A DNA stretch of 64,000 nucleotides, taken from NCBI GenBank assembly GCA_030066785.1, contig JASJAZ010000006.1:3504-67503 (forward strand), written 5' to 3'. The stretch is from Desulfobacterales bacterium (GTDB taxonomy: Bacteria; Desulfobacterota; Desulfobacteria; Desulfobacterales; JASJAZ01). Shown piece by piece: positions 577 to 61,038 of the stretch (position 1 is the first letter of the stretch; each line of letters begins with the position of its first letter). Below the pieces are notes generated by a model. The model saw only the letters and a program-made list of their open reading frames with translations, ran no database searches and was not told where the DNA came from. The position numbers and the translations under genes are program-made.

Positions 577-2529
577 TCAGGCATCCTCAGCATTTTCAGG
601 TTGGGCCGGTCGCTCAATCGCCGGCACCAAATGTGGCGGGGATACTTTACGAACCGCGTCGTATTCGGGGGGACAGGCCACGACACATTCGCCGCATTTA
701 ACGCATAGTTGCTGATCAATGCCTTTTTTACGGGTACTGGTGGTAAAAACCGCGTTGGTGGGACAGCAGCCCACACAGGCATCGCATCCCCGGGCGCACT
801 TGTCCAAATCGATATAATAGGCAATTAAGGGGCGGCACACCAGTCCCGGGCAGCGACCTTCTTTGAGGTGCGCATCGTAATCTTCTTTAAAATACCGAAT
901 CGAGGTGAGTATCGGATTCGGCGCCGTTTTCCCCAATCCACACAGCGAGCCCTTTTTTATATCCAGGCTTAAATCCTGTAATCGCTGCAAATCATCATCC
1001 TGTCCTTCGCCCTTGGTGATGCGTTCAAGAATATCCAACAAATGGCGGGTACCGATGCGGCAAAATGTACATTTGCCGCAAGATTCATTTTGGGTAAAAT
1101 CTAAAAAATAGCGCGACACATCCGCCACGCAAGTATCTTCATCCATGACCACCATACCACCGGAACCCATCATGGCGCCGGCTTGGGTTAGAGAATCAAA
1201 ATCAATCGGGGTATCCAAAAACGCTGCCGGCAGGCACCCCCCCGAGGGTCCCCCGATCTGTACGGCCTTAAATGCTTTCTGATTGGGTATGCCCCCGCAA
1301 ATATCAAAAATGAGCTCGCGCAGCGTCACCCCCATGGGAATTTCCACCAAGCCGGCATGGACCACATCGCCAACCACCGAAAATATGGCGGTTCCTGGAC
1401 TTTCTTCCGTGCCGATGCTCCGAAACCAGGAGTAACCTTTCTCAATGATTGGCGGCACGCAGGCCAGCGTTTTCACATTATTGATCACGGTGGGTTGGCC
1501 CTTGAGGCCGTTGACCACCGGATAGGGTGGCCGGTGTTGCGGCATCCCCCGATAGCCTTCGATGGAGCGAATCATTCCGGTTTCTTCACCACAAACAAAA
1601 GCGCCGGAACCCTGAAATAGTTTTATTCTAAAGTTAAAGTCGGTTTCAAAAATATGGCGGCCCAGAATCCCCATGGTTTCCGCCTGAGCGATGGCGCGTG
1701 TCATTATTTTAACAGCCAGAGGATATTCGGCCCGCACATAGATTATTCCCTGATGTGCGCCCACCGCCCGTGCACATATGGCCATGCCTTCCAAAACTTG
1801 GTGGGGATTGCTTTCTATAATGGTTCGATCCATGTATGCACCCGGATCGCCTTCATCGGCATTACAAATGACGACTTTTTCGAGGCTCTCCGCCTCACGA
1901 GCCAGCGCCCATTTGCGTCCCGTGGAAAATCCGGCACCACCCCGTCCCCGCAGGCCGGCATGCTGGATTGCAGCCACTATGTCTTCCGGAGCCATTTGCA
2001 GTGCTTGCGCCAATCCGCTATATCCCCCGCTGACTAAATAATCATCTATTTCCTCTGGATTGATGTGACCGCATTTTTCCATTACCACCCGCACTTCCTG
2101 GTTGAAACGGTCAAACTCGGTTACCGATGGAATCATTTCATTGGTTTCCATGGCACCGTAGATATGTTCGAAGCAGGGGTCACCTTCGATTAAAAACTGC
2201 CGCACCAGCATTTTGGCTTTGCCGGCCGTTACGTTATGGTAGAATATCGGTGCAAATCCTGAATCCGGGTGATCAATAATAACCACCGGTTCGGCGTAAC
2301 AATGCCCAATACATCCCACTGTATAAATTTGCGCTTCCACCCTCCGTTCCGCCAGTGCCTGTTCAAATGTCTGCTTGGTCTCAATGGCCCCGGCTGCGAT
2401 GCCGCAGGTGGCCATGCCGATGGTGATCTTGGGAACCGCGCCATCGGTATCTGCGGTTTTACGCTGGTCGGCTTGTTCCCGAATCCTTTGAAAAACCGCT
2501 TTTAATGCTTGGTGATTGGCTACCGTCAT
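577..2529 (-). CDS. NuoF/HydB-type NAD(P)H-binding flavoprotein subunit with an N-terminal thioredoxin-like 2Fe-2S domain and a C-terminal 2x[4Fe-4S] ferredoxin domain
   Basis: 650-aa ORF. Motifs GLRGRGGAGFSTGRKW (FMN/NADH site), ESCGKCTFCR (N3 cluster) and a C-terminal CxxCxxCxxxCP pair. It overlaps the upstream NuoE-like gene by 4 nt. Confidence 0.9.
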   Translation of the reverse strand: MTVANHQALKAVFQRIREQADQRKTADTDGAVPKITIGMATCGIAAGAIETKQTFEQALAERRVEAQIYTVGCIGHCYAEPVVIIDHPDSGFAPIFYHNVTAGKAKMLVRQFLIEGDPCFEHIYGAMETNEMIPSVTEFDRFNQEVRVVMEKCGHINPEEIDDYLVSGGYSGLAQALQMAPEDIVAAIQHAGLRGRGGAGFSTGRKWALAREAESLEKVVICNADEGDPGAYMDRTIIESNPHQVLEGMAICARAVGAHQGIIYVRAEYPLAVKIMTRAIAQAETMGILGRHIFETDFNFRIKLFQGSGAFVCGEETGMIRSIEGYRGMPQHRPPYPVVNGLKGQPTVINNVKTLACVPPIIEKGYSWFRSIGTEESPGTAIFSVVGDVVHAGLVEIPMGVTLRELIFDICGGIPNQKAFKAVQIGGPSGGCLPAAFLDTPIDFDSLTQAGAMMGSGGMVVMDEDTCVADVSRYFLDFTQNESCGKCTFCRIGTRHLLDILERITKGEGQDDDLQRLQDLSLDIKKGSLCGLGKTAPNPILTSIRYFKEDYDAHLKEGRCPGLVCRPLIAYYIDLDKCARGCDACVGCCPTNAVFTTSTRKKGIDQQLCVKCGECVVACPPEYDAVRKVSPPHLVPAIERPAQPENAEDA

Positions 2530-3047
2530 TTTTCGGACTTCTGTCTGGCCTCCATTTCCTTTTCCACTTGTATTCGTGTAAAAATACCTTCTACCTTGCT
2601 GGGCGCCATGTTGCCATGCACCGATTCACCTAACAAAGCCACCGGCGCAAGGGCACAACAACCCACACACGCAACCCGCTCAATACTGAACTCGCGATCA
2701 GGTGTGGTTTCGCCCTCTTTGATTTCCAGTTTGCGCTCAAAATTTTCAAGGATAATATCGGCCCCTTTCACGTGGCAGGCCGTTCCCAGGCAAACTTTAA
2801 CCGGATACTTACCCGGTGGATTAAACCGAAATTGATTGTAAAAGCTTGCCACACCGTAAACTTCCGCCGGTGCTAGATTAAAATGGGCTGCGACCAATGC
2901 AATTGATTGATAAGGGATATAGGCCAACCTTGCTTGAATGTATTGTAACACCGGAATCAGTCGGCTCCGATCCCGCTTTGATTCAGACAAATATTGCTGA
3001 ATATCGGCCAGGATCGCTTTTTCTTCAGACGTCAGCACATCGTTCAT
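2526..3047 (-). CDS. NuoE/HydC-type 2Fe-2S thioredoxin-like ferredoxin subunit
   Basis: The ORF contains VCLGTACHVKGA...VACVGCCALAP, the NuoE 2Fe-2S motif. I placed the start at MNDVLT (ATG 3047). The track start at 3092 is a TTG and is an alternative. Confidence 0.8.
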   Translation of the reverse strand: MNDVLTSEEKAILADIQQYLSESKRDRSRLIPVLQYIQARLAYIPYQSIALVAAHFNLAPAEVYGVASFYNQFRFNPPGKYPVKVCLGTACHVKGADIILENFERKLEIKEGETTPDREFSIERVACVGCCALAPVALLGESVHGNMAPSKVEGIFTRIQVEKEMEARQKSEK

Positions 3048-3140
3048 TGACAAAGCCTTTGGGAAAATACAGCATGATGTTTTCCAAACCAAATTACGGG
3101 TACGAGGTCTGATGGCATGGTTGCGATATCACAAGCAAAA

Positions 3141-6913: not shown

Positions 6914-7891
6914 ATGAAAATCACTGTTGTCGGCGCCGGCGCCATGGGCAGCCTTTTTGGGGCAATGCTGTTTGAAGCCGGGTTAAATGTCTCCCTGTTC
7001 ACCACCAATGTCGCTCACACAGCCGCCATCCAAAATGACGGCCTCAAAATCGAAGTTAGTGGTAAAACTCGTACCGTCCCGGTTTCAGCCATCTCAGATC
7101 CAATCAACCTGGATCCCGTCGATCTGGTCATTGTATTGGTAAAATCGCCCCAAACCCAACCCGCAGCTAAGACGGCTAAAAAAATTCTAAAGCCCAATGG
7201 TGTTGCCTTAACGCTGCAAAATGGGCTTGGCAACGCCGATATTATTGCCGCCACGATTAGCCCCAATAAGGTTTTGGCGGGCTCCACCTCGCATGGCGCC
7301 ACCATGCTCGCCCCGGGCCGTATTCGTCATGCCGGCAAGGGCCCTTCCGTTATCGGTCCATGGGGCGCCTGCAAACTGCAATGTGCGCAGATGATTGCCG
7401 GGCATTTTGCGCAGGCAGGCATTGACATCACCGTATCGGATAAAATTGAAACGGTCTTATGGCAAAAACTTTTAATCAATATCGGTATCAATGCCATTAC
7501 CGCCTTAACCGGTATTAAAAATGGACAACTATTGGATCTGGCCGTCACACAGGAACTATCCCGACAAGCGGTGCTAGAAGGCATGCAAGTAGCACAAGCC
7601 CTCGGCATCGATGTCAGCAATGATGTTGTCGAAAACGTTGTCAAAATTGCCAAGGCCACTGCGAATAACCGCTCTTCCATGGGGCAAGATGTCGATCGGC
7701 ACCGTGAGACTGAAATTAATGCCATCAATGGCCTGATTGTACGCCAAGCACAAAAATTGGGATTGACCGTACCAATTAATCAAACTCTGACCACCTTGAT
7801 CCAAACACTGCAGACGCACTATCTTGAGCAGAAAGGAGCAGACGAATATGGGTCGCGCAAAAACGACGGTAAAGGATATCCGCCAGGCTAA
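6914..7891 (+). CDS. panE: 2-dehydropantoate 2-reductase (ketopantoate reductase)
   Basis: N-terminal Rossmann motif MKITVVGAGAMGSLFG, a C-terminal ApbA_C-like region and adjacency to panB. The 3' end overlaps panB by 44 nt in another frame. Confidence 0.8.
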   Translation: MKITVVGAGAMGSLFGAMLFEAGLNVSLFTTNVAHTAAIQNDGLKIEVSGKTRTVPVSAISDPINLDPVDLVIVLVKSPQTQPAAKTAKKILKPNGVALTLQNGLGNADIIAATISPNKVLAGSTSHGATMLAPGRIRHAGKGPSVIGPWGACKLQCAQMIAGHFAQAGIDITVSDKIETVLWQKLLINIGINAITALTGIKNGQLLDLAVTQELSRQAVLEGMQVAQALGIDVSNDVVENVVKIAKATANNRSSMGQDVDRHRETEINAINGLIVRQAQKLGLTVPINQTLTTLIQTLQTHYLEQKGADEYGSRKNDGKGYPPG

Positions 7892-8693
7892 AATCGCAGA
7901 GCGCAAACTGGCCATGTGCACCGCATATGACTATCCATTCGGTCTTCTGGCCGACGAAGCGGGAATGGATATGGTTTTAGTGGGAGACTCGCTGGGAATG
8001 GTCGTAATGGGCATGGAGAGCACTGTCGCAGTTACGATGGAGCATATGATTCATCATGTCCGCGCGGTGGTGCGGGGGTGCTATCATCCGCTGGTTATTG
8101 GCGACATGCCGTTTATGAGCTACAATATCAGTATCGCAGAAGCCATACACAATGCCGGCCGTTTTATGAAAGAAGGCGGTTGCGATGCTGTCAAACTGGA
8201 AGGCGGTGTTGATTTTGCCCCCACGGTGACGGCCATTGTTAAAGCCGGTATTCCGGTGCAGGGACACATTGGCCTAACCCCTCAAACGGCCAGTGCGTTG
8301 GGCGGTTTTAAATTGCAAGGACGGGATGCGGCGGCTGCCAAACAAATTGTTGAAGATGCATTGGCACTTGAAAAAGCAGGGGTTTTTTCAATGGTTCTGG
8401 AAGCCGTACCGGCGCCGTTGGGCCAAATCGTGACCAATGCCGTATCTGTTCCGGTGATTGGCATTGGCGCCGGAGCCGATGTCGATGGGCAGGTGTTGGT
8501 CACCCATGATATGGTTGGTTTATTCGATAAATTTGTACCGAAATTTGTTAAACAATATACCAATATCAGGGAAACGATCCTGACGGCATTGGGCGCATAC
8601 AAAAAAGATGTTCAGACCGGCACCTTTCCAGGACCGGAACAGTCATTTGAAATGCCGGAGGAAACTTTACAGCAACTCAAAAAAATGATTTAG
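7848..8693 (+). CDS. panB: 3-methyl-2-oxobutanoate hydroxymethyltransferase (ketopantoate hydroxymethyltransferase)
   Basis: Strong PanB-like sequence (MCTAYDYPFGLLADEAGMDMVLVGDSLGMVVMG...VKLEGG...GHIGLTPQ). The start is set at MGRAKT, preceded by AAAGGAG. Confidence 0.9.
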   Translation: MGRAKTTVKDIRQAKIAERKLAMCTAYDYPFGLLADEAGMDMVLVGDSLGMVVMGMESTVAVTMEHMIHHVRAVVRGCYHPLVIGDMPFMSYNISIAEAIHNAGRFMKEGGCDAVKLEGGVDFAPTVTAIVKAGIPVQGHIGLTPQTASALGGFKLQGRDAAAAKQIVEDALALEKAGVFSMVLEAVPAPLGQIVTNAVSVPVIGIGAGADVDGQVLVTHDMVGLFDKFVPKFVKQYTNIRETILTALGAYKKDVQTGTFPGPEQSFEMPEETLQQLKKMI

Positions 8694-8741
8694 AAATAGT
8701 CCGGCTTTTGGAGGTGCGTTACTAAAATACAAAAACCCGGC

Positions 8742-8771
8742 CCCTCAGGGAACCGGGTTTTCGTTACCATC
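8742..8771. terminator. Bidirectional intrinsic-terminator-like hairpin between convergent panB and metF
   Basis: AAAACCCGG...CCGGGTTTT. The stem AACCCGG/CCGGGTT is flanked by an A-run on one side and a T-run on the other. Confidence 0.55.
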
Positions 8772-8784
8772 AAATTTTATTCAT

Positions 8785-9741
8785 TTAATCGACTTCGGGT
8801 CTTGGCAGCACACCGGCTTGCTCAGCAATCTGTGGCACTTTGTGCTCCCATTCAATGGCCATTAGATGCACTCCGGCCACGCCTTGCATTTCTTTGAATT
8901 CTTCGATCTGTTCACAGGCGATTTTGATGCCTTCTTCCGCCACCTTGCCTTTGCCGGCGCCCTGCAGACGCTTGATAAGGTCTTCCGGTACATCCATTCC
9001 TGGGACCTTGCTTTGCATATATTTGGCCATACCAACACTCTTCATGGGCGTTACCCCTGCGAGAATGTATGCTTTTTCGGACAATCCCATATCGTTGGCC
9101 TGTTTAACCCAGGTTCTAAAACGTTCCATATTATAGATACATTGCGTCTGGATGAAATCCACACCCGCCTCAATCTTTTTGGCCAGCCGATGCACACGCC
9201 ATTCATAGGGCTCCGCAAAAGGATTGGCGGCTGCACCAATAAAAATCTTGGGCGGATCTTCAATCTCGGCGCCACCTAAAAATTGGCCCTCATCGCGCAT
9301 CCTTTTCACCATACCGATCAATTGCATGGAGTCGATATCAAATACCCCCTTGGCTTGAGGATGGTCACCAAATTGCTGGTGATCTCCGGAAAGACACAGC
9401 ATGTTGCGAATACCAAGCGCATAAGCGCCCAATATATCGGCCTGCATGGCCAGTCGATTGCGATCCCGGCATACCATTTGAAAATTCGGCTCCAGGCCCT
9501 CCTGCACCAAAATGAACGATGCGGCCCAGCTGGCCATTCGAACCACGGCGGTCTGATTGTCGGTAATATTGACGGCATCCACCATGCCTTTGAGATGCGA
9601 TGCTTTTTCGGTTACCTCTTTGACCGTGGTTCCGCGCGGGGGACCCAGTTCGCCTGTAAAGGCAAAATGGCCTGCACGCAATACTTTTTCTAAATTGCTA
9701 CCCGACTTATAGCCGTTCTGTTCTGTACTCATATCCGTCAC
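8785..9741 (-). CDS. metF: Methylenetetrahydrofolate reductase catalytic subunit (acetogen/SRB MetF type)
   Basis: 318-aa MTHFR TIM-barrel sequence (FAFTGELGPPRG...NITDNQTAVVRMAS...). It lies directly downstream of a MetV-type gene. Confidence 0.9.
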   Translation of the reverse strand: MTDMSTEQNGYKSGSNLEKVLRAGHFAFTGELGPPRGTTVKEVTEKASHLKGMVDAVNITDNQTAVVRMASWAASFILVQEGLEPNFQMVCRDRNRLAMQADILGAYALGIRNMLCLSGDHQQFGDHPQAKGVFDIDSMQLIGMVKRMRDEGQFLGGAEIEDPPKIFIGAAANPFAEPYEWRVHRLAKKIEAGVDFIQTQCIYNMERFRTWVKQANDMGLSEKAYILAGVTPMKSVGMAKYMQSKVPGMDVPEDLIKRLQGAGKGKVAEEGIKIACEQIEEFKEMQGVAGVHLMAIEWEHKVPQIAEQAGVLPRPEVD

Positions 9742-9808
9742 CTTCTTTAAAAATCAGTTATCATGGTTAAAAGCAGTTTGGGCAATCAACCATTTACACG
9801 GAAAAAAA

Positions 9809-10483
9809 TCATTCCTCTTCTTCCGGCTTTTTGTAGCCGGGTTGAATTAAGGTTCGCGGTACTTGATCACACCACGTACTGGGCGCCTTAATGCGTTTAA
9901 TGTTATCCAGGCGGTCCTGCGCCGACAGCCGTTCATGGATCAGGTACCAGGCACACGGTTGATCCTGGCTGATTTCGCATTTGCCCTGGTTGGTGCCACC
10001 ACAAGGTCCATTGTAAAGGCCTTTGGCACACATGGTTACCGGACAGATACCGCCGGTCCATCCCAACACGCAGCTCTGGCAGGATCGACAGCGTTCCTCA
10101 TACCAACCCACCGCCTGGTTGACGGCCAGTCCCGAGGTATCCACTGCCGGCAGAACCGGCGTTTCCGGGAATCGTTCCGCTAAAAACTGGATGCCGACAC
10201 CGCAGGCCATGGAAATGAGGGCATCGTAATCCTTTACCATATCATCCAGTTCGGCCAGATACTCGCGGTCACACTGGCGCTCCACGGTATAGGCCCCCAA
10301 TTCGATGGGATCATTATCAAGTTTGCGGGCCATGTCGATTTCGGCGTTTAAGACCGCCACTTCCTTCTCGCCGCCGGCCAGACAAACCGAGACGCAGGTA
10401 CCGCAGCCCACGTTTAGAACTTTCTTATAGCCTTTGAGCATATCTTTGATTTCTTCAAAAGGCTTGCGCTTAGCAACTATCAT
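9809..10483 (-). CDS. metV: Methylene-THF reductase small Cys-rich subunit (MTHFR_C / MetV type)
   Basis: 224 aa, Cys-rich (CGTCVSVC...CRSCQSCVLGWTGGICPVTMCAKGLYNGPCGG), matching the MetV zinc/Fe-S subunit pattern. It is adjacent to metF. Confidence 0.85.
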   Translation of the reverse strand: MIVAKRKPFEEIKDMLKGYKKVLNVGCGTCVSVCLAGGEKEVAVLNAEIDMARKLDNDPIELGAYTVERQCDREYLAELDDMVKDYDALISMACGVGIQFLAERFPETPVLPAVDTSGLAVNQAVGWYEERCRSCQSCVLGWTGGICPVTMCAKGLYNGPCGGTNQGKCEISQDQPCAWYLIHERLSAQDRLDNIKRIKAPSTWCDQVPRTLIQPGYKKPEEEE

Positions 10484-10542
10484 TTTTCCTCCTGTTACAC
10501 CGCTCAGCTACCAAATAGATTGTTGATTAACCATCAACTATG

Positions 10543-11865
10543 CTAGAAATTTGAACTTTCCGGATGAAAGACATCCACATCTTTGAGATCATCGCCCAGA
10601 TATTCGCGTTCATTCGGACCGAGGATGCCCATGGATAAACAAATTAAGGTCCAAAGGTGGACCGTGTTCCAGGCGTGATCACGCTGGTCGCTCAGGTCGT
10701 GGATCTGCGCGTGGCAATTATGGCATGGCGTAATGCAGTAACCGGCGCCTGTATTAAGGACCTGTTCGGCCTTAAGTTTACCGTATTCCCGACGTGCTTC
10801 CGGATAGCCTGATTGCAAGAAACCACCGCCGCCGCCGCAGCAGTAATTGTTTGATTTGTTCGGAGCCATATCGATGAAGTTCTCTTTACCGACCACCGCT
10901 TCAACCACGTAGCGCAGGTCATCCGCCACCGGATCGCCAAACGATTTACGCACCAGTTGGCAGGGGTCTTGAACGGTGAATTTAACCTTGCGGTCCTTAT
11001 TCCAGTCAGAGCTGACCTTGAGCTTGCCTTCTCGAATCCACTGGGCATAGTACTGAATGATGCTTTTGATTTCAAATTTGTAATCGAGGTTGAATTTTTG
11101 CTGTCCGAACCGGACAGCGAACAGTTCGTGCCCTCATTCAGTATTGAGCCAGACCTTGCAGCCCAGATCCTCCACCGCCTTTTGTTTAACCTCGACAATA
11201 TGCTTCCAGCTTTCCTCATCGGCCATGAACATGCAGTAGTTCTCGGCCGCCCAACCCTTGGTACCGTAAGTCCAGTCGGCGCCTACCGCGTGTAAAATTT
11301 TCCACAAAGGCACCATTTCATCCGGCTCGGTCACCGGTTCACGTGAATTCTGATTCAAGAAAAACTCAGCCCCTTTTTTGTTAACCGGCGCCTGCATATC
11401 TTTAAATTCCGGCTGGGCCTCCTGGTATTCCTCCAACACATCTTCGACCACAAACTGAAAATCTTCCTCGGTGGCGCCCATGGCACTGCAGGTATCGCTG
11501 CGCAGGGCCATATCACAAGAGCCCACAATGCCCTTGGGCCGTTCTTCCCGCGGCCAGCTTTGGCGGGCATAGAAAACCAGCTGGGGGATGTTGATCTTCA
11601 TGGGACACACATACACGCAGCGGGTACACATGCTGCACATCCACACCCAGGGGGTACTGGTGATCTCCTCATCCATCCCCAGGGCGGCCATGCGCAGAAA
11701 TTTGCGCGGGTCCATGCCCTCCAAACCAGTGGCCGGGCATCCCGAGGAACACGCGCCGCATGTCAGACAAAGATTCAGATTCCCGCCTTCGGGAAGCAAA
11801 TCCTTCACCTTGTCGATAAACATGCTTTTCTTTTTGCCTCCTAATTTAATTGCTTCATCTGCCAT
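10543..11865 (-). CDS. Fused HdrC/HdrB-like (HdrD/GlpC-type) Fe-S oxidoreductase; predicted selenoprotein with an in-frame TGA at 11134-11136
   Basis: Track ORFs 11134-11910 and 10543-10953 are in the same frame and joined by one TGA: ...KVWLNTE-U-GHELFAVRFGQQKF...VQDPCQLVRKSFGDPV. The N-terminus has 2x CxxCxxCxxxCP. The C-terminus has a CCG domain (NYCCGGGGG...PCHNCH). The U sits at the second Cys position of the first CCG-type motif (C-x31-E-U-G). The start is at MADEAIK (ATG 11865), preceded by TAAGGAG. Confidence 0.8.
11101..11117 (-). promoter_or_regulatory. Candidate SECIS hairpin for the HdrCB-like UGA
   Basis: mRNA CUGUCCG-GUU-CGGACAG, a perfect 7-bp stem that starts 16 nt after the UGA. 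Confidence 0.55.
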
Positions 11866-11878
11866 AATTGACTCCTTA

Positions 11879-12325
11879 TTAGGCTGCCGCCTTCTTTTTA
11901 TTGGTTGCATCTTTATTTTGATTCAACGGATTAGGACCGAGTTCTTTGATGTGCTCGGTCATTTCCTTGGCGTATTGGGCAAAGGTCGGGCCCTCGCCGG
12001 AAGACAGGTTGTACATGCGAACCCGGTCGCCTTCAATGCCGATCTCGTCCAACAACTCCCGAACGTGATTGACTCTTTCCCGGCATCGCAAATTGCCCTC
12101 ATTATAATGACACGCGCCTTCCAAACAACCAACGCAATAGGCACCATCGGCGCCCTTTTGAATGGCTCGTAAAAGATGAATCACATCGACCTTGCCGGTG
12201 CAAGGCACCCGAATTATTTTCACATTGGCCGGATAATCCAGTCGCATGGAACCTGCCAGGTCCGCAGCGGAGTAACCTCAATATTCACAACAAAATGCGA
12301 TGATGGTTGGTTCAAAATCTGACAT
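11879..12325 (-). CDS. mvhD: MvhD-type (methyl-viologen-reducing hydrogenase delta) 2Fe-2S protein; predicted selenoprotein with TGA at 12278-12280
   Basis: Hand translation upstream of track ORF 11879-12247 stays in frame: MSDFEPTIIAFCCEY-U-GYSAADLAGSMRLDYPANVKIIRVPCTGKVD... The paralogue at 15364-16113 reads [17 protein letters not shown] at this point, so U aligns with a Cys. The ATG at 12325 overlaps the hdrA stop by 1 nt (TAATG). Confidence 0.8.
12249..12263 (-). promoter_or_regulatory. Candidate SECIS hairpin for the mvhD (11879-12325) UGA
   Basis: mRNA GGACC-UGGCA-GGUUC, a 5-bp stem including one G.U pair, starting 14 nt after the UGA. This is the weakest of the five hairpins. Confidence 0.35.
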
Positions 12326-15300
12326 TACATACCTCCAGCAAGAAGGGCATCAATTTTACAAATCAGCTGTTCGTCTTCATAGAAGCTCAGCCCGATTACC
12401 TGCCGCGGACAAACCGCCGTACATACGCCGCATCCGTGACAAAGCGCCTCGTTAATTTCAATTTCTTTTTTTTCGGTATTAAACTCCGGTACGCCAAACG
12501 GGCAGGAGCGGACACACGTCAGGCATTTCACACAATGCTCCACATCCACTTTGGCAGTAATGGCCGAAAGTTTGATGGCATCCTGGGCCAAAAAGGTTGT
12601 GGCCCGTGATGCGGCGGCCTGGGCCTGGGCAATGGTCTCCGAGATGAGCTTGGGCCCATGGGCCGTTCCGCAAAGAAAAACCCCTTCGCTGGGCATATCC
12701 ACCGGACGCAATTTGACATGCGCTTCAATGAAAAAGCCTTCCGGGTTGCGGTTTAATTTCATGATATTGCTCATCTCTTGGGTATCAGTGGCGGTCATAC
12801 CGGCACTAAGCGCCAATAAATCGGCCCTGATTTCGACATCCTGCTGCAAAATATGATCCTTGACAGTCACCAGCATGCCGTCGGAAGCCGCTTTGACAGC
12901 CGGTGGCGTATCTTTGTCAAACCGAATGAAGATAACCCCTTGCTTACGGGCTTCCATGTAGTAGTCTTCCAGCAATCCATAGGTACGGATATCCCGGTAC
13001 AGCACAAACACTTGGGCATCCGGGTTCTGTTTCCTGATCAGCAGCGCATTTTTTACGGCATTCTGGCAGCAGATGCGCGAGCAGTTTTCATTTTCTTCGT
13101 TGCGGGAGCCAACGCATTGAATCATAACAACGCTGGTCAGTTCCGCAGCACCCTTATTTTCCAACATGTCACCCAATTCCACCTGGGTGACCACCCGTTC
13201 ATCTTCGCCATATAAAAACTCTTGAGGCTGATATTCGGTGGCACCCGTGGCCACCAAAAAAACACCATGCTCAATGCGATGGGCTGCTTTATCGGCGCCC
13301 ACTTCGATCTCCGTGGCAAAGCTGCCTTTAAACCCTTCGAAACCGGCAATGCGTGCATCGGTAAATACTTGAATGTTTTCATCGTCAGTTACATCAGATA
13401 CTAGCTTCGCTACGTAAGCCGGAATATCATCACCCTCAATAGTATGGTGCAGTTTGCGGGCAAACCCGCCCAACTCGGCATTTTTTTCAACCACAATGGC
13501 GTTAAAACCTTGCCGGCTGAGCCCCAAGGCCGCATTCATCCCGGCAACGCCCCCGCCGATGACCAGCGCCTGTTTGTTGATGGGCACAACCTTTTCGTTA
13601 AGCGTATGCAGGGTGGATGCCCGGGCAACCGCCATGCGCACCAAATCCTTGGCTTTTTGGGTTGCAATCTCTGGATTATTGGAATGAATCCATGAATTCT
13701 GATTGCGGATATTGGCCATTTCAAACAGATATTTGTTGAGGCCGCAGGCCTCCAGCGTCTCCATGAACATCGCTTCATGAGTTTTGGGGCTGCAAGACGC
13801 CACCACTACCCGGTTCAATTCAAGTTCCTTGATCTTTTCTTTAATCAGATCCTGTGTGTCCTGGCTGCAGGTAAACAGGTTCTCATCGGCATAGGCCACA
13901 TTCGGCAGATTTTCGGCGTATTTACGAACTTCGGGAACATCCACAATCCCGCCGATATTGATGCCACAATTGCAAACAAACACACCGATACGCGGATCTT
14001 CCTGGCTGACATCCCTTTGTTCAGGAAGTTCAATTTTGGCGATGTCGGTTCCCCGCGCCGCAGCCAACTCGGCCCCCGCAGCACACGCCGCTGCGCTGGC
14101 TTCGGTAACCGAACTGGGGATATCCTTGGGGCCCTGCAGCACACCGCAGGTGTAGATACCGGCACGTGAGGTCGTCACCGGTGCAAAAGAATTTGTCTGC
14201 ACAAAGTTGTAATGATTTAATTCAATGCCCAAGCGTTCGGCCAGCTCGGCCCCATCCGGCTGAATCTGAAGCCCGACGGACAAAACCACCATATTGAATA
14301 CTTCTTCCTGCATCGCACCGGTTTCATCTGCGAATTTGACAACCAAATCGCCGGTATCGGGAACTTCCGTGATGGTATGAATGCGGGCTTTCACAAAACG
14401 CACGCCGTCTTTATCTTTGGCCCGGTTATAGTACTTTTCATAATCCTTGCCAAAGGTACGCATGTCCATATTAAAAATGGCGCAGTCCAAATCTCCATGG
14501 GCATGCTCTTTGGCAATCATGGCTTCCTTGACCGCATACATACAGCACACTGAAGAGCAATAGCCATTGCCGGTGCGGTTGGCATCACGGGATCCCACGC
14601 ACTGCAGCCAAGCAATTTTCTGCGGTTCTTCGCGATCCAACGGCCGCATGAGATGTCCCAGATAAGGACCGGAAGCGCTTAGAATTCGCTCAAATTCTTC
14701 ACTGGTCACCACATTGGGATATTTACCGTAGCCCAAATAGTCGAGGCTGGAGGGGTCATAACCCCGACTGCCGGCTGACAGTATCACAGAGCCGACATTG
14801 AGCGAGCTTTCGCGCACCTTATCATCGTATTCGACCGCCTTGGCGATACACATATTTTCACAAAGTCCGCAGCCGATACAGGTTTCCGTATCGATGGCAA
14901 ACGCAAGGGGTACCGCTTGGGCATATTCGATAAAGGTGGCCCGGCGGTCATCCAGCTTTAAATTGTATTGATTTACAGCGGTTACAGGGCAATGCAGCGC
15001 ACATTCACCGCATCCCGTGCATTTGACGGGATCAATGTATCGCGGACGGTTGCTCAAGGTAACATCAAAATTTCCGGGACTACCTTCCACACTTTTGATG
15101 TCGCTGCAAGTAATCAGTTCTATGTTAGGGTGCCGGCCGACCTCGACCAGTTTAGGTGAGATCACTCACATGGCACAATCATTGGTCGGGAACGTTTTGT
15201 CCAGTCGGGACATCATCCCGCCAATGGTCGGCGACTTATCAACTAAATATACTTTGTAATCCGAATTGGCCAAGTCCAGCGAAGCTTGCATGCCGGCGAT

Positions 15301-15354
15301 ACCGGCACCTACGACCATCACTGAACCGCTTTTCTTGGTACTTTCAGCTCCCAT
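12325..15354 (-). CDS. hdrA: Long (about 1009 aa) tandem-type HdrA-like flavoprotein/Fe-S subunit; predicted selenoprotein with TGA at 15166-15168
   Basis: Track ORFs 15166-15354 and 12325-15165 are in frame across one TGA: ...[30 protein letters not shown]. There are two GxGxxG FAD motifs ([22 protein letters not shown]), several ferredoxin CxxCxxCxxxCP motifs and CVGSRD...[19 protein letters not shown] precedes ATG 15354. Confidence 0.85.
15133..15150 (-). promoter_or_regulatory. Candidate SECIS hairpin for the hdrA (12325-15354) UGA
   Basis: mRNA CUGGUC-GAGGUC-GGCCGG, a 6-bp stem with two G.U pairs and GGU in the loop, starting 15 nt after the UGA. The element is identical in the paralogue. 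Confidence 0.45.
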
Positions 15355-15363
15355 GTGATCTCC

Positions 15364-16113
15364 TTATAAAGCTGCAAAAACCGGTTTACAGGCTTCCATT
15401 CCTTTGAATTCAACCATATTGGTCTTTTCCATATCAGCCAGCAGATAAGAAATCTGCCTTAAATTCAATCCAACTTTTTGGCTGATGTCGCGCGGGGCGG
15501 CACAGCCCTCTTGAATGGCTTGATAAATTAGATTCTTTTGATATTCACGCTCTAATACTTGATCCAAAACCGTTTCAAAACTGTGTTGGTCCCATTGGCG
15601 GCCATACACATCGCCTTTGGTGGTAATTTCGACTTCCTTGCCCACCATCCAACGAATCGTTTCGCCCGAAACTGTCATTTCAGCGGCTTCCAATTGGAGG
15701 GCATTGGCTTGGCAGTCAAATTTACCCTGGTTTTGGATGGAATTGACGGTTGCATTGACAACCTCCACAAACCGTTGGGCTTCTGCTGATGATACCCACG
15801 CCAAGTGGAGCCGCTCTGCACCGATACCGGCAATATCCAGTAATTTTTGGGTTAGCCGGATTTTTTTATCAGCTTGGACATTACCTTCCAGGTAATGGCA
15901 GTCACCGAAATGTCACCCTGCTACCAGGGCGCCATCACAACCTTCTTTAAAGGCTTTGATAATAAATAGGGGATCGATGCGTCCGGAACACATGACGCGT
16001 ACGGTGCGCATGTTGGGTGGATACTGCAACCGGGAGACACCGGCCAGATCGGCACCGGCATAAGCGCACCAGTTGCACAAAAACGCCGCAATTTTTGGTT
16101 CAAACTCTGCCAT
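15364..16113 (-). CDS. mvhD: MvhD-type protein with a C-terminal extension of about 130 aa; predicted selenoprotein with TGA at 15913-15915
   Basis: Track ORFs 15913-16113 and 15364-15804 join in frame: ...[60 protein letters not shown]... The U replaces the Cys in the position corresponding to CVGCLEGACHY of the paralogue (the G-C-H-x-G-x-C-H-Y type motif). Confidence 0.85.
15879..15897 (-). promoter_or_regulatory. Candidate SECIS hairpin for the mvhD (15364-16113) UGA
   Basis: mRNA CAUUACC-UGGAA-GGUAAUG, a perfect 7-bp stem starting 15 nt after the UGA. Confidence 0.55.
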
Positions 16114-16180
16114 AATACTACCTTATCAATTTGATTTAATGGTAAATGACGTTAATCAGTCAAAACGTTCATCGATTACT

Positions 16181-19100
16181 TTAGGCAATGGCACACACAG
16201 ATGCCACAATCTGCTCATCTTTAAAATGCAGCATGTCGATGGCTTTTTTCGGGCAAGATGAGGCACACAACCCGCAACCCTTGCAGGAAGCAGGAATGTT
16301 CTTGGCCCGATAACCCTTGCCCTCGACTTCTTCAACTTCAATGGCACCAAATGGGCAGACGCTGGCACATAGTCCACAACCGATACAGGTTTCCGCATCG
16401 ACCTGGGAGACCAGCGGTGAAATTTGAATATTGGCTTTGGCCAGTACCGTGGCGGCTCGGCTGGAAGCCGCCAGCGCCTGGGCAATGCTTTCATCCAGTG
16501 ACTTGGGAAAATGCGCTAAGCCACAGACAAAAATACCATCGGATGCAAAGTCGACCGGTCGCAACTTCGCATGGGCTTCCATGAAGAAGTTTTCTTCGTT
16601 GACCGGCAGCTTGTACAGTTCGGCCAGTTGGCTGTTATCCGACGGCACGATGGCCGTTGCCAAATTCAAAAGATCCGCGCTGATGATGACCTCTTTTTGC
16701 AAAATCGGATCAAACACCTGAATTTCCAAACCATCACCAGCCTCTTTAACTACCGGCTTGCGGTCCAGCGTGTAGCGAATGAAAATCACACCTAGCTGTC
16801 GTGCTTGTTTGTACAGCACTTCCCGTTCCGCATAGGTGCGGATATCGCGATACAGCACAAAAACATCTTTATCAGGTGACTGTTTCTTAATTTGAATGGC
16901 TTGCAGCACTGATCCCGTACAGCAGATCCGTGAGCAATACGGTCGCTGGTCATCACGTGAGCCGACACACTGAATAAACACAACGCTCTGCGCATCCTTC
17001 AACTTAGCAGGATCATTTTCCAGGTCATGCCACTTAGTGACACAAGGGCTTTGGCCAAACAGATATTCATCCGGTTCATAGGCTTGTCCGCCGGTGGCAA
17101 TAATAGTTGCGCCATGTTTGACCGTGACCTCACCCTTGCCATTTTTTACCTGAGTTTCGAAATTGCCGACAAAGCCCGAAGCACCTACCACTTCACTGTC
17201 TAACAATACCTTAACATCGGTGTGTTTTTCGACTTGATCGACCAAGTCCGTTAAAAAGGGTGGCACGTCACGGCCGCTCCATGTCTGATGCACATCTTTC
17301 GCGGAACCGCCCAATTCAGATGATTTTTCCACGATCGTGGTGGGAAAACCCTGATCGGCCAAACTCAGCGCGGCCGTCATACCAGCCACGCCGCCACCAA
17401 CTACCAGAGCAGATTTATCGACATCCACCGACAAATCCGGAATCGGTTCCAGCAGCGATGCGCGGGAAACGGCCATACGCACCAGGTCTTTGGCTTTCTC
17501 CGTAGCATCGGCCTTGCTCTTGGAATGCACCCAGGTGCATTGGTTGCGGATATTGGCCATCTCAAATAGATAGGCATTGACCCCCGCGTTGCGGATGGTT
17601 TCCTGAAACAACGGTTCATGGGTACGTGGGGTGCAGGCTGCGACAACAACTCGATTAAGATTCTGTTCCTTAATCACTTCAACCATCTTTTCCTGGGTGT
17701 CCTGGCTGCATGAAAACAGGTTCTCTTCCACATAGGCGACATTCGGCAGGGTTCGCGCATATTCAGCAATGGCCGGAACGTCTGCAATACCGCCGATATT
17801 CACACCGCAATTACACACAAAGACGCCTACCCGGGCGTCCTGGTCGATTACTTCAAGCTCTTTGGGAAACACCTTATCTTTGACCATGGTGCCGCGGTGA
17901 TCCGACAAGGAAATACCGGCCCGACACGCCGCAGCACTGGCTTCCATGACCGCCTGGGGAATGTCTTTGCAGCCCTGCATCACACCCGCCACATAAATAC
18001 CCGGCCGGGAAGTATTAACCGGTGCAGTGTCATCGGTTTTGACGAAGTTATAATCGTTTAACTCGATATCAAGTGTTTGGGCCAAATCAATGGCTTGATC
18101 GGACGGCTCCATACCAACCGACAATACCACCATATCAAACTGCTCGATATTGCGTTGGCCTTCATCAGAGGCGTACTCTAAAGCCAAAGTTCCACTGTCA
18201 TCAGCTTGTGTAATGGAATGTACTTTGGAGCGAATAAATCGAACGCCTTCATCCTTGGCGCGATTGTAATATTTCTCAAACTCTTTGCCATGGGTTCGCA
18301 TGTCCATGAAAAATACCGTGGCTTCGAACTGTTCGCCAATATGCTCTTTGGCGATCAGGGCTTCCTTGATGGCATACATGCAGCAGACCGAGGAACAGTA
18401 TTCATTGTCACAGCGGTTCAAGTCCCGCGAACCCACACATTGCAACCACGCGATCTTGGTTGGTTCCTGTTCATCCGATGGTCGCAGCACATGACCACCA
18501 GTGGGGCCGCTGGCGGACAAGATGCGTTCAAACTCCATGCTGGTCATAACATTGGGCAGTTTGGCGTGCTGATAATTATCTAAAGATGATGGATCGAACG
18601 GTTTGTATCCCGCCGTGGCAATGACCGCACCCACGTTTAGATTCAGCGTTTCTTGCTTTTGATCAAAATCAATTGCATCGGTAGGACAATATTTTAAACA
18701 GGCCCCACATTTGCCTTTTTTCAAATAAATACATCTTTCGGGATCGATCACGTATTTCAGGGGCACCGCCTGGGCATAGGGAATATATGCCGCCTTGCGT
18801 TTGGAAATGGCTTCATTGAATTCATCGGCGGTTTTAGCAGGACATTTCTCCTCACAGGCCCCACAGGCAATACATTTTTCCATATCCACATAGCGGGCCG
18901 ATTTTTTGATGGATACCGTAAAGTTCCCTTCTTCGCCCTGAATATCGGTAACTTCAGAAAGGGTATGCAACTCGATGTTTAGGTGCCGGCCGACCTCGAC
19001 CAGTTTGGGTGAGATAATTCACATGGAACAGTCGTTGGTGGGAAAGGTCTTGTCAAGCTGGGCCATGGCACCACCGATGGCCGGCGATTTTTCCACCAGA

Positions 19101-19207
19101 TGGACATAATAGCCTGAATCGGCAAGATCGAGAGCAGCCTGCATGCCGGCGATGCCAGCACCGACCACCATAACCGATCCGCTTTGGGATGATTTTTTTG
19201 AACTCAT
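16181..19207 (-). CDS. hdrA: Second long (about 1008 aa) tandem-type HdrA-like subunit; predicted selenoprotein with TGA at 19019-19021
   Basis: Track ORFs 19019-19207 and 16181-18970 are in frame across one TGA when the intervening codons are read: ...[38 protein letters not shown]... The domain order matches the paralogue at 12325-15354. RBS CAGGAG precedes ATG 19207. Confidence 0.85.
18986..19003 (-). promoter_or_regulatory. Candidate SECIS hairpin for the hdrA (16181-19207) UGA
   Basis: Same CUGGUC-GAGGUC-GGCCGG element as in the paralogue, starting 15 nt after the UGA. Confidence 0.45.
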
Positions 19208-19334: not shown

Positions 19335-19363
19335 AATATCTCATAGAATGAGCCCTCCGTCAA
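19335..19363 (-). promoter_or_regulatory. Possible sigma-70-type promoter upstream of the hdr/mvh/met cluster
   Basis: Minus strand reads TTGACG, 17 nt, GATATT, about 125 nt upstream of the hdrA ATG at 19207. This is a pattern match only. Confidence 0.25.
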
Positions 19364-19594: not shown

Positions 19595-20644
19595 TTAGGC
19601 CGCTTTTTCATCCGTCGCCGTCTCAGTCGTGCTGTTGTTGCCCCACTTGTACTTGGCGTATTTGAGATAGCCAAATACATTATTGAGACGGGGGTCAACC
19701 ACATCTTCAATCGGCATAACCGTGCCAGGCAGCAGCGGAATTAAGTAGTCTCCTAACGCCTTGGCGCCGCCGCCGGTGAGAATAATATTATCGATGTCCC
19801 AGTCATCAGACCATAGCCGTTCGATATCGTTGGCAATGAGCTCAGCCGAATGCGAAAAAACCTTTGTCTTGATATCGTCAAGTGCATATTCCTGCCCACG
19901 GATCTTAATGCGACCCGATTCAACCGCTTTATAAAGCCGATATAACTCCAAGTTGACTCCGGTTTCTTCACGCAGTTTTTGAGCAATGCCGCTGAAACTT
20001 TTCGAAATTCCGTTATCCATCGTGGCGCTTCCCCGATCAACAAAACGCATCTGATCCATAATCGTGCAGTCCACTGTCCGAAAACCGATATCAACAACCC
20101 CAACTTTCTGTTTCGTCAAATCTTTATTGGCAATTTTCCCGTTATCATCCATGAGGATATTGAAGACGCTTCCCAGGGGTTGGGGCATCATGCGCACCTT
20201 ATTAATGTTTATCCGGCGGGTCACCTGACTGCCATCGGCTTTATGAAAGGTAATTTCGTGTTGACCCATTAGTATCTTGGTGAAGTTCGTGTAAAATTTC
20301 TTTAGATAGCCAACCGGCAGGCCCGATACAACATTGAGAGGAATATATTTTTCAGGAAAACTGCCAGCGATGGTAAGGGCCAGGACCTTGACGAATTTGG
20401 ATATTAGTTTTTCCTGATTCAAGGTATACTGTTGAATATTGGATTGTAACTCCGCAAAATCACCAACAAAATAAGATTTATCGTCAATGGTAACATGCAG
20501 GTTATCTTTAATTGAATCCTTGGCAATTTTTGTGCGGAATTTGATATCGGTAGCCTCCCCGAGCAGCGACTTAAAAACGATTGCCTCTTTGCCGTCAGTG
20601 GCTTTGGTAAAACCAAACCCAACATCAATGCCTAAAACTTCCAT
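19595..20644 (-). CDS. ParM/Alp-family actin-like ATPase (ALP_N-type N-terminus); orphan with no ParR-like partner visible
   Basis: 349 aa. The N-terminal phosphate-1 motif VLGIDVGFGFTKA, a second motif VGVVDIGFRTVD and a distal ILTGGGA match the actin/Hsp70 fold as in plasmid-segregation actins. A strong GGAGG RBS is present. Confidence 0.7.
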   Translation of the reverse strand: MEVLGIDVGFGFTKATDGKEAIVFKSLLGEATDIKFRTKIAKDSIKDNLHVTIDDKSYFVGDFAELQSNIQQYTLNQEKLISKFVKVLALTIAGSFPEKYIPLNVVSGLPVGYLKKFYTNFTKILMGQHEITFHKADGSQVTRRININKVRMMPQPLGSVFNILMDDNGKIANKDLTKQKVGVVDIGFRTVDCTIMDQMRFVDRGSATMDNGISKSFSGIAQKLREETGVNLELYRLYKAVESGRIKIRGQEYALDDIKTKVFSHSAELIANDIERLWSDDWDIDNIILTGGGAKALGDYLIPLLPGTVMPIEDVVDPRLNNVFGYLKYAKYKWGNNSTTETATDEKAA

Positions 20645-28297: not shown

Positions 28298-29173
28298 ATG
28301 CCCACAACTGACATTACCAAAATAAAAATCGGAAAGTACATGATCGGTCTTGTGGGGTTTAAAGATGCCCTGAAAGAAACAGCTGACACATATGCAGATC
28401 AACCGGATGATACCATTGCGCGACAGTTATTAGATCGGCTCAAAAAAAGAAACTATATTCCCCAACATGTCCAAAAAGAATATGGGCAAGCTTTTGTTAG
28501 AGAGTTTCGCAAATTTATGGGTCAGCCGTTTACCCAAGAGGCTTCCACTGAGTTGGAAATAAAAGTGCTGGGTGCCGGTTGTGCGGTGTGTGACGGTCTC
28601 GAAAATTTATTAATGCAAGTTTTGGCAGAAATGAATTTGGCGGCTGATCTGGAACACGTGCGCGATGTTGAAAAATTCGATCACTACAATGTCACGCAAA
28701 CACCGGCACTGGTGATCAATGGTAAAATAATCTTTGCAGGTAAAGCACCAAGCAAACATCAAATCAAAGCATGGCTGCAGAAGGCTGGCATTAAACAAAC
28801 ATCAGGAGGACAAATGGATAAACCGGTACTTATCAAAAACATCCCATTTTCAGAGTCGCAGAACCTATTGGATCTGGTAGAATATGAAGAGGGTCGCGTT
28901 GTTAGCCGAACATTTGCTCAAAATCCATCTGTCAGTTTAACCCTTTTTGCCTTTGATGCGGGTGAAGGCATCAGTGCCCATACCGCGCCTGGAGATGCTA
29001 TGGTGCAAGTTTTAGATGGCGAAGCGCTGGTAAATATTGATGGCACTGATATAACCGTCTGTGCAGGTCAGGTAGTAGTGATGCCGGCTGATGTTCCGCA
29101 TGCAGTTACGGCCGCTAAACGATTTAAAATGCTGCTAACCGTCGTTAAAAGGCCTTTGGGTATTCAATCGTAG
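28298..29173 (+). CDS. Three-part fusion: unknown N-terminal domain, thioredoxin-like CxxC domain (Thioredoxin_3 / MTH895 type) and cupin domain
   Basis: The middle region KVLGAGCAVCDGLENLL...TPALVINGKIIFAGK is the small redox-active disulfide protein pattern. The C-terminal 110 aa have a cupin_2-like pattern (GEGISAHTAPGDAMVQVLDGEA...VVVMPADVPHAV). Confidence 0.65.
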   Translation: MPTTDITKIKIGKYMIGLVGFKDALKETADTYADQPDDTIARQLLDRLKKRNYIPQHVQKEYGQAFVREFRKFMGQPFTQEASTELEIKVLGAGCAVCDGLENLLMQVLAEMNLAADLEHVRDVEKFDHYNVTQTPALVINGKIIFAGKAPSKHQIKAWLQKAGIKQTSGGQMDKPVLIKNIPFSESQNLLDLVEYEEGRVVSRTFAQNPSVSLTLFAFDAGEGISAHTAPGDAMVQVLDGEALVNIDGTDITVCAGQVVVMPADVPHAVTAAKRFKMLLTVVKRPLGIQS

Positions 29174-59812: not shown

Positions 59813-60324
59813 ACCTTTACTGGCTGCCGTTAATAAACCGTCTAAGAAGGTATCAATAAATCATATTTCAGATATTCACGGGAAACACAACTAAGCAACA
59901 ATTTACAGTTTAAAAGAAGTTATTTCAAGGGACTTTAACATCTAGCGAACTAGCAATAACATGTCTGTAACAGACATGAAAGAGTATTACACGATATTCC
60001 AAGCTGACGCTTTGCATAATAAATCATCTTCTTCAGCTGTTCGTGCTTAAAAATTAGAATTAAATTGAATTCTAAATCCAGGGGTTTTATGGTTGCAAAA
60101 GGCGTGAATTTGCTTCAATTGGATGAAATGCTTTGTTGTTGGTTTATTTAAAAAATAAAAAACCCACAAGGTCTCGATGCTGACCAAATGCCGCATCGTT
60201 TTCTTCGGGTTATGCAAGTGCCATCCACTTACAACATTTGAAAGGATCGTTAAGCTGGACCGTGTTTTGGAAAATATCGACAGAGAAGTTGCATTGTTTA
60301 GCTGAAAAACAAAAAGGAGGAATT

Positions 60325-60753: not shown

Positions 60754-61038
60754 TATGGTTGCGAATTGATTTTTGATAAGATGCCTTTAACTCTATGAGA
60801 AAATTGGAATAAAATGTTTGAAAATTGAGTTCGCCTATGTTTAAATTAGCATAGTTTCCTGTCATTATTGTTCTCAATTTGTACTGATAACTTTTCGACA
60901 AACTTGCCCGTCGATCTTAACATAGAATTAGTTTGGTATACTTATGAAAAATTGGTTTAAATTGAAACGAGGATTTTAAATGCGTTTCATATAGAACGTG
61001 CCCAAAACAAGTCAATCAACATGCTAAGGAGGATTTAA

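Follow-up and report, generated by a model that had tools for sequence, protein, structure and literature searches.

HdrA, FrhD/MvhD and GlpC-type iron-sulfur (Fe-S) oxidoreductases have stood on the list of bacterial selenoprotein families since 2006, and the same study described operons with four selenoprotein genes, hdrA-hdrA fusions as well as hdrA_N-unknown-hdrA_C splits (PMC1794560). In 2007, many HdrA, FrhD and GlpC selenoproteins were counted in the delta symbionts of Olavius (PMC1976440). Methylene-tetrahydrofolate (methylene-THF) reductases joined to Hdr proteins are also known, namely MetFV-HdrABC-MvhD of Moorella thermoacetica (Mock et al., 2014) and HdrCBA-MvhD-MetVF of Sporomusa ovata, the latter being bidirectional, quinone-linked and membrane-associated (PMC9430772). 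One selenocysteine (Sec)-containing HdrA and one Sec-containing FrhD of M. thermoacetica were listed by Zhang et al. in 2006 (PMC1794560). Here we analyze a seven-gene operon, hdrA1-mvhD1-hdrA2-mvhD2-glpC-metV-metF, on the minus strand (~19.3 to 8.7 kb) of a 64,000-nucleotide (nt) stretch from an uncultured Desulfobacterales bacterium (assembly GCA_030066785.1, contig JASJAZ010000006.1, positions 3,504 to 67,503). This whole stretch is called the window, and positions are given in its coordinates. Comparative sequence data strongly support the reading of five in-frame UGA codons in this operon as Sec.

The operon shares with the Moorella and Sporomusa systems its single transcriptional direction. 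An earlier interpretation made from the DNA letters (the sequence-only reading) had likened it to the MetFV-HdrABC-MvhD complex, and this likeness holds, because metF adjoins metV in the same direction (PF02219 and PF12225) and HdrA and MvhD lie in one cluster with them. The HdrA-MvhD module is single in the two known systems, whereas it is present twice here; in place of their separate HdrB and HdrC there is a single fused HdrD/DsrK-like protein; five Sec codons are present; and the host is a member of the Desulfobacterales, in which the pathway is probably oxidative. The operons with the gene order glpC-hdrA-frhD-frhG-frhA in Syntrophobacter fumaroxidans and Desulfotalea psychrophila (PMC1794560) bring together the same three selenoprotein families and hold several selenoprotein genes per operon, as here, a likeness at the family level. 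However, they end in the hydrogenase genes frhG/frhA, while the present operon ends in metV-metF and has its HdrA-MvhD pair duplicated. Compared by description, Desulfobacterium autotrophicum HRM2 belongs to the same order, Desulfobacterales, and has Sec in the same families. Its Hdr selenoproteins comprise HdrA1/2, HdrL1/3, HdrD4 and MvhD1/2/3/5, each hdrA or hdrL is followed by mvhD, and there is a soluble HdrD-type (HdrCB-homologous) selenoprotein, as here; the accessible part of that genome description mentions neither a link of these loci to metVF nor a duplicated arrangement (PMC2702500).

Translation of the minus strand across all five TGAs gave uninterrupted frames, so that the ten fragments seen by mechanical open reading frame (ORF) prediction are five continuous proteins, as the sequence-only reading had proposed. 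On the basis of continuous frames and Pfam domains, these are hdrA1 (16181..19207), a fused "double" HdrA of 1008 amino acids (aa) whose Sec63 (TGA 19019-19021) stands in a C-x-x-U motif (U denotes Sec); mvhD1 (15364..16113), an FlpD/MvhD protein of 249 aa with a C-terminal extension of ~120 aa, Sec67 (TGA 15913-15915) and Cys16; hdrA2 (12325..15354), a second fused "double" HdrA of 1009 aa with Sec63 (TGA 15166-15168); mvhD2 (11879..12325), an FlpD/MvhD protein of 148 aa with Sec16 (TGA 12278-12280) and Cys67; and a GlpC/HdrD-type Fe-S oxidoreductase of 440 aa counted from the ATG at 11865 (10543..11865; TGA 11134-11136). The two remaining genes, assigned by Pfam, are metV (9809..10483), encoding a small subunit of 224 aa of the methylene-THF reductase C-terminal type (DUF5981, PF12225) with a genuine TGA stop, and metF (8785..9732), encoding a methylene-THF reductase of 315 aa from the ATG at 9732 (PF02219). 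All seven genes lie on the minus strand. The intergenic gaps range from -1 to 76 nt, and the stop codon of hdrA2 and the start codon of mvhD2 overlap as TAATG.

The same locus with all five TGAs was found at 99-100% protein identity in six independently assembled NCBI metagenome-assembled genomes (MAGs). MAGs with this contig include GCA_029979995.1 and GCA_013332975.1. Because the TGAs recur in independent assemblies, they are not sequencing errors, and this explanation was ruled out. In each of the six assemblies, gene callers cut all five genes at the TGA, which bears out the expectation that standard annotation fails at this locus; among the best 120 database relatives of HdrA1, all 120 are stored as N-terminally truncated proteins. 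A change of the genetic code was likewise ruled out: TGA is the stop codon of 15 of the 45 annotated genes in the window, including metV of the same operon, so the code is not reassigned. A search of the window ORFs for further read-through selenoprotein genes with hairpins yielded none that was convincing.

Conservation of the TGAs extends well beyond the species. For the GlpC-type protein, one genome per species was scanned, which gave more than 580 relatives, and TGA codons were tallied for the best 80. All of these come from Desulfobacterales or related taxa, including Desulfosarcina variabilis, Desulfospira joergensenii, Desulfotignum and Desulfobacula. Codon 259 is TGA in 80/80 of these species loci, at 72-91% aa identity, and the frame continues past it. 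The HdrA and MvhD TGAs are kept at 53-92% identity in loci L010, L011, L012, L038, L039, L045, L072, L040, L042, L063 and L087. The HdrA1 TGA is retained in orthologues at 54-78% identity, and 11 and 14 distinct orthologous sites retain the TGAs of MvhD1 and MvhD2, respectively. More distant HdrA and MvhD homologues have TGC or TGT in place of TGA, and the most distant ones have Ser codons at MvhD position 16.

The sequence-only reading had placed each TGA at a conserved cysteine, and alignment with Cys-containing and Sec-containing homologues agrees: all five fall in Cys/Sec columns. HdrA1 and HdrA2 are 52% identical, and in Pfam both have HdrA-like Pyr_redox_2/FAD and Fer4 domains. Against archaeal HdrA (9sfi_A, E = 5e-186), the matches fall into three stretches that together take in every HdrA domain, in an order that is rearranged and fused, with aa 11-378 matching residues 145-511, aa 452-617 residues 2-167 and aa 828-1006 residues 470-651. 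The first half has the FAD domain with an inserted ferredoxin domain and the C-x-x-U motif, and no N-terminal cluster domain; the second half runs from the N-terminal [4Fe-4S] domain to the C-terminal ferredoxin domain and has no Cys197 motif. The predicted fusion in HdrA1 and HdrA2 is the complementary pattern that Chadwick et al. described in large HdrA proteins, among them that of the Moorella MetFV-HdrABC-MvhD cluster, and took to be a heterodimer within a single chain, the cluster of one half being completed by Cys197 of the other (PMC9012536).

U63 of HdrA aligns with Cys197 of Methanothermococcus HdrA (5odc_A) and with the non-standard residue X197 of 9sfi_A, in the motif D-C-A-M-X. The HdrA of Methanococcus maripaludis (9sfi) and the proteins here thus align exactly at this residue and share the motif D-C-x-M-U; the proteins here differ in being fused double proteins, without a separate partner protomer. 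Sec197 of M. maripaludis HdrA was seen by cryo-electron microscopy in the Hdr-Vhu-Fwd paper of 2026, and a Cys-Sec197 selenylsulfide relay between flavin and cluster was suggested by that structure (PMC13518236). Under either published view of Cys/Sec197, Sec63 sits at a key electron-transfer junction. A third Sec-type HdrA start occurs in the related locus L011, from position 20908 onward and ~9 kb downstream of the operon; it is 68% identical over aa 5-151 and has the TGA and the same hairpin.

FlpD (PF02662) was recognized in both MvhD proteins (Pfam E = 1e-48 and 1e-49), and the two align without gaps. U16 of MvhD2 aligns with the first Sec (X) of archaeal VhuD (9sfi_K) and U67 of MvhD1 with the second, so that each matches a single Sec of the pair in M. 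maripaludis VhuD. Each paralogue has Cys where the other has TGA, and this complementary pattern is kept in the orthologues. That bacterial FrhD proteins have Sec at just one of the two sites that hold it in archaea was reported in the 2007 study of the Olavius symbionts (PMC1976440). The C-terminal extension of MvhD1 (15364-15735, minus strand) is missing from MvhD2 and from archaeal MvhD; it is conserved at full length in L010, L011, L012, L038, L039, L045, L072 and L087, and a domain search of it returned a sub-threshold winged-helix hint alone (HTH_24, E = 0.023).

The frame of the GlpC-type gene spans 10543-11910 from its first ATG, which makes the Sec residue U259; from the ATG at 11865, the more likely start, which has an AAGGAG ribosome-binding site, it is U244. 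Among full-length homologues (64-71% identity), 120/120 have Cys at residue 259, which lies in the motif N-T-E-U-G-H, and in the homologue alignment C317, C357/358 and C396/399 are invariant. Pfam recognizes Fer4_8 at aa 45-106 (a 4Fe-4S dicluster) and one CCG domain at aa 312-403, whose motif CX(n)CCX(n)CXXC is complete. The sequence-only reading had named this gene hdrCB. Its HdrC-like ferredoxin domain stands, and its identity as HdrC plus HdrB does not, because only a single CCG domain is recognized and the best scores are to HmcF, TmcB and DsrK, which indicates an HdrD/DsrK-type protein. These scores of 110-163 bits are the best matches and remain below the curated, equivalog-level cut-offs of 400-750. 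The protein is a relative of DsrK, HmcF and TmcB and not a member of those named complexes. Fused hdrCB genes have been reported for some sulfate reducers and in marine Chloroflexi clusters (PMC5736913). In the uncultured Desulfosarcina chromosome of locus L023 (11454-14219, minus strand), the Sec-containing gene, glpC(U), is adjoined by two ORFs, one of 376 aa with Fer2_4/Fer4/Molybdop_Fe4S4 domains and one of 540 aa with Molybdopterin/Molydop_binding domains, which together resemble a single formate-dehydrogenase alpha subunit interrupted at a Sec codon.

In bacteria, the Sec insertion sequence (SECIS) is a stem-loop directly 3' of the UGA and within the coding sequence (PMC9312934). All five TGAs here are followed by a hairpin that starts 14-15 nt later and has a stem of 6-8 base pairs, a loop of 3-4 nt and G in one of the first two loop positions; the G/U-containing loops noted from the sequence alone are present at 5/5 sites. 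On the minus strand, these hairpins are CUGGUCG-AGGU-CGGCCGG in hdrA1 (18986..19003), the same 18 nt in hdrA2 (15133..15150), CAUUACCU-GGA-AGGUAAUG in mvhD1 (15879..15897), GGACCU-GGC-AGGUUC in mvhD2 (12249..12263) and GCUGUCCG-GUU-CGGACAGC in the GlpC-type gene (11100..11118). The mvhD2 hairpin starts 14 nt after the UGA and the other four start 15 nt after it. The apical loops begin 20-23 nt after the UGA. The consensus of bSECISearch, the 2005 program of Zhang and Gladyshev, is said to fit a loop at this distance with G in its first two positions. The likeness to SECIS elements of the Escherichia coli fdhF type lies in the stem-loop right after the UGA, its place in the coding sequence and the G in the apical loop; the differences from bacterial SECIS elements are the short stems, the small loops, the lack of an identified bulged U and the lack of an Rfam match. 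Archaea use SECIS elements in the 3' untranslated region, unlike the in-frame bacterial hairpins here.

Hairpins of this kind occur at 0.9-1.3% of codons in the long ORFs of the window, which puts the chance of finding one at 5/5 TGAs at ~1e-10, or ~3e-8 if the two HdrA paralogues are counted as one; the claim that the pattern exceeds chance is thereby upheld with figures whose hairpin criteria were chosen after the data were seen. Over all loci compared, 105/116 distinct TGA sites have the hairpin, against 0/90 sites with Cys or other codons. In 71 distinct GlpC sequences, pair 26-30 of the hairpin is GC in 55 and UA in 16, pair 21-35 takes five pair types, and neither pair is ever unpaired. 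The covariation score was matched by 0/500 shuffles and lies above all slid controls, and in several of the compensatory changes the substitution in one arm alters an aa and its partner in the opposite arm is synonymous. The HdrA hairpin is nucleotide-identical at 19 distinct Sec-type sites, in proteins that are 54-82% identical, and is absent at 17 Cys-type sites; equally conserved residues near it are written with 2-4 synonymous codons. Across 14 sequences, the codons of the MvhD2 hairpin do not change, whereas synonymous sites on either side of it do, and in locus L063 the MvhD1 hairpin carries a compensatory change from U-A to A-U in its loop-closing pair. Taken together, these comparisons show the predicted hairpins to be under nucleotide-level selection.

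The observation made from the sequence alone is therefore confirmed, and its interpretation as Sec recoding is supported by the conservation of the TGAs, their Cys/Sec columns and the distribution of the hairpins. We are highly confident in the reading as a whole, that is, a MetVF-Hdr operon in which five UGAs would be read as Sec by the standard bacterial SECIS route. Each hairpin, with G in its apical loop, would recruit SelB with Sec-tRNA(Sec) to the ribosome. The operon would encode a MetVF methylene-THF reductase joined to Hdr-type electron-bifurcation parts, namely two fused double-HdrA flavoproteins, two MvhD [2Fe-2S] connectors and one soluble HdrD/DsrK-like CCG protein. Sec63 in the C-x-x-U motif of HdrA would work where the flavin meets the [4Fe-4S] cluster of the N-terminal-type domain. 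Since the second half of the chain itself contains this domain (aa ~452-590), each HdrA would act as its own pseudo-heterodimer. Of the two Sec positions of archaeal VhuD, one would be used by each MvhD paralogue, a different one in each case, and in the HdrD-like subunit a Sec close to the CCG cluster would serve chemistry of the thiol/disulfide type.

In such an enzyme, the methyl-THF/methylene-THF couple (~-200 mV) would be coupled to one high-potential acceptor, a disulfide such as that of DsrC or a quinone, reached via the HdrD-like subunit, and to one low-potential carrier, NAD+ or ferredoxin, at HdrA. The complex would let a complete-oxidizing sulfate reducer run the Wood-Ljungdahl pathway oxidatively. 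By analogy with Moorella (PMC5861303) and Sporomusa (PMC9430772), we infer a methylene-THF reductase that may operate in both directions.

Several observations weigh against this reading. Pfam scans of essentially all other ORFs of the 64-kb window found no selA, selB or selD, and none was found in 60 related loci; ARAGORN detected no tRNA-Sec in the window or in the same 60 loci. The Sec machinery is therefore assumed from relatives, on the grounds that the pairs of UGA and SECIS-like hairpin are conserved and that isolates of the same family (Desulfobacteraceae) carry sel genes. D. autotrophicum HRM2 has selABCD, tRNA-Sec and 31 selenoproteins, including HdrA, HdrL, HdrD4 and MvhD (PMC2702500), and Desulfococcus multivorans has selA/B/D together with Sec-containing HdrA and MvhD (PMC5109826). 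Minimum free energy (MFE) folds of the 62 nt at each site, compared with shuffles, are not unusually stable at 4/5 sites (z = -3.2 for GlpC), and for hdrA1 the MFE chose a different fold from the SECIS-like hairpin; the whole-62-nt test was replaced by the position-specific hairpin test and the comparative analysis. The HdrA and MvhD2 hairpins are invariant and so provide frozen synonymous sites alone, with no covariation. An Rfam scan of 8-20 kb (E <= 10) returned no SECIS family and one chance snoRNA-like match, a null that is uninformative because Rfam appears to have no model for short bacterial SECIS hairpins.

The proposed enzyme faces objections of its own. HdrB has two CCG domains, and the GlpC-type protein has one that is recognized. 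Among 33 species with at least 9 kb of flank on both sides, the glpC(U) gene stands without any partner gene nearby in 14, so its membership of a MetVF complex is not assured. The physical complex, its substrates and the direction of its reaction are proposed by analogy.

The alternative that survives best accepts Sec and denies the single complex: the seven genes would not form one MetFV-Hdr enzyme, and hdrA1-mvhD1, the HdrD-like protein or both would serve other redox partners, for example beside a smaller MetVF-HdrA2-MvhD2 enzyme to which the other genes are merely neighbors. The orphan state of the HdrD-like selenoprotein in those 14/33 species fits such a view, and its neighbors there are varied. 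They include an HrpA-type helicase, ParAB, FdhA, TetR/acyl-CoA dehydrogenase and an AOR-ADH fusion; no shared partner was found among the neighbors of the orphan genes, and in three examples examined they are unrelated genes. Loci in which glpC(U) lies among unrelated genes are L014, L019, L023, L030, L032, L034-L036, L041, L043, L047-L049, L051, L052, L054, L057, L058, L060, L062 and others. A single module, hdrA(_N-x-_C)-mvhD-glpC-metV-metF with three Sec and hdrA split as hdrA_N-insert-hdrA_C, serves the sister lineages L009, L013, L016 and L028, and in L040, L042 and L063 a pair like HdrA1/MvhD1 lies beside GlpC without MetVF.

On the other hand, the genes all point the same way and are tightly packed, two of them overlap stop to start, and a single terminator follows. 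The order hdrA-mvhD-hdrA-mvhD-glpC-metV-metF, or evidence of the doubled module, was found in eight species-level loci, and the seven-gene order is counted as conserved in at least eight species plus L087. Furthermore, glpC(U) has metF nearby in 16/33 species, in at least four gene orders, which argues for a functional tie. These orders include metV-metF-hdrA(Cys)-mvhD-glpC(U) in Desulfosarcina and glpC(U) followed by Cys-type hdrA-mvhD-metV-metF in L059, L061, L073 and L081. We consider separate partners unlikely, though not remote.

Far less probable is the reading of these UGAs as a residue other than Sec, whether by genome-wide reassignment to Trp or Gly or because Cys is placed at these sites. 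When selenium is scarce, the Sec machinery is able to insert Cys, and the identity of the residue placed here is read from sequence comparison. However, UGA still terminates a third of the annotated window genes, metV among them, so the code as a whole is not reassigned; the residues that align with these UGAs are Cys or Sec and never Trp or Gly; the same positions have been determined experimentally as Sec in HdrA and VhuD of M. maripaludis; and the hairpins match a SelB-type signal. The idea that the TGAs are ordinary nonsense codons, which leave five pseudogenes or truncated products only, draws on the splitting of every gene by gene callers and on the lack of visible Sec machinery in the window, but it is effectively refuted and retains next to no probability, because the protein past each TGA is 53-92% identical across many species with no other stops, the GlpC TGA is kept throughout the best 80 of more than 580 loci, every TGA lies in an invariant Cys/Sec column and a selected hairpin follows each one; pseudogenes are ruled out by this conservation.

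As for the ends of the operon, a consensus scan gave a promoter-like site, TTGACG-17-GATATT with TG upstream (19335..19363, minus strand), ~130 nt before the hdrA1 start; the count of such sites is not above shuffled expectation, so this one is a tentative candidate. The operon likely ends at a terminator-like hairpin of 16 pairs with a T-rich tail (8729..8764, minus strand), 20 nt after the metF stop. Directly upstream of the operon and in the same orientation lies a gene for an actin-like protein of the ParM type (ALP_N and MreB-like_C; 19595-20644, minus strand), which is kept in L001-L004. At 577-3092 on the minus strand are NuoF-like (650 aa) and NuoE-like (188 aa) genes, and in L001-L004 the gene past the window start, next to this pair, has NuoG/Fer2_4-type Fe-S domains. 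The NuoF/NuoE-like genes may represent a hydrogenase or formate dehydrogenase module linked to NAD(H), which could supply or drain the Hdr system. In the split HdrA of L009 (5153-9590), L013, L016 and L028, an insert of ~1.3 kb lies between the N-terminal piece that has the TGA (aa 1-171) and aa ~154-1009, an arrangement that matches the hdrA_N-unknown-hdrA_C form of the 2006 study (PMC1794560).

Elsewhere in the window, the mechanical ORFs of panE and panB (6914-8693) overlap by 68 nt. In assembly L001 (12593-13571), panE is called as two pieces of 165 and 170 aa and is intact in the other assemblies, which is probably an assembly frameshift in that MAG. A protein with Thioredoxin_3 and cupin domains is encoded at 28298-29173 on the plus strand, with no in-frame TGA seen. 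The G+C content of 60001-64000 is 0.37-0.39, against 0.42-0.52 elsewhere in the window; this part may be foreign or intergenic-rich DNA, and a 281-aa ORF within it (61946-62791) has no Pfam family.

How new is this locus? The sequence-only reading had rightly named HdrA, MvhD and GlpC-type proteins as known selenoprotein families, and it had located the novelty in the density and arrangement of the Sec codons. This was overstated, given the four-selenoprotein operons of 2006, the single Sec use in VhuD-type proteins of 2007 (PMC1976440) and the same cluster with all five TGAs and hairpins in an Olavius-associated assembly (L087/L088, GCA_903231505.1), in which one cluster protein has a source name beginning "Olaviu...", as well as in other MAGs, which brings the cluster to at least eight species besides this one. 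A partial literature search found no description of the duplicated, five-Sec, MetVF-linked arrangement, which is absence of evidence. With this locus, known selenoprotein families gain one more member, and the known MetFV-HdrABC-MvhD system gains a modest variant.

Because all five TGAs lie in well-known selenoprotein families, the finding is mainly an annotation fix: the ten fragments here, together with their counterparts in many Desulfobacterales MAGs in public databases, should merge into five selenoproteins. It changes neither what is known of Sec decoding nor which families are known to use Sec. The locus does point to a very conserved HdrD-like protein that contains Sec always, in 80/80 species among the best 80 of more than 580 relatives. 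As a speculation to which we give rather little credence, the duplication may not be redundancy: the two fused HdrA pseudo-heterodimers, paired each with an MvhD of its own that bears Sec at a different VhuD position, may instead make an asymmetric two-flavin, two-arm bifurcating complex, whose arms would lead to MetVF and to the Sec-containing, disulfide- or quinone-linked site of the HdrD-like protein, with selenium at every inter-module junction needed for near-equilibrium methyl-THF oxidation in complete-oxidizing sulfate reducers. The fate of the methyl-THF electrons at -200 mV in the oxidative Wood-Ljungdahl pathway is a long-standing problem, and if the two-arm complex were true, it would be a selenium-dependent answer to it.

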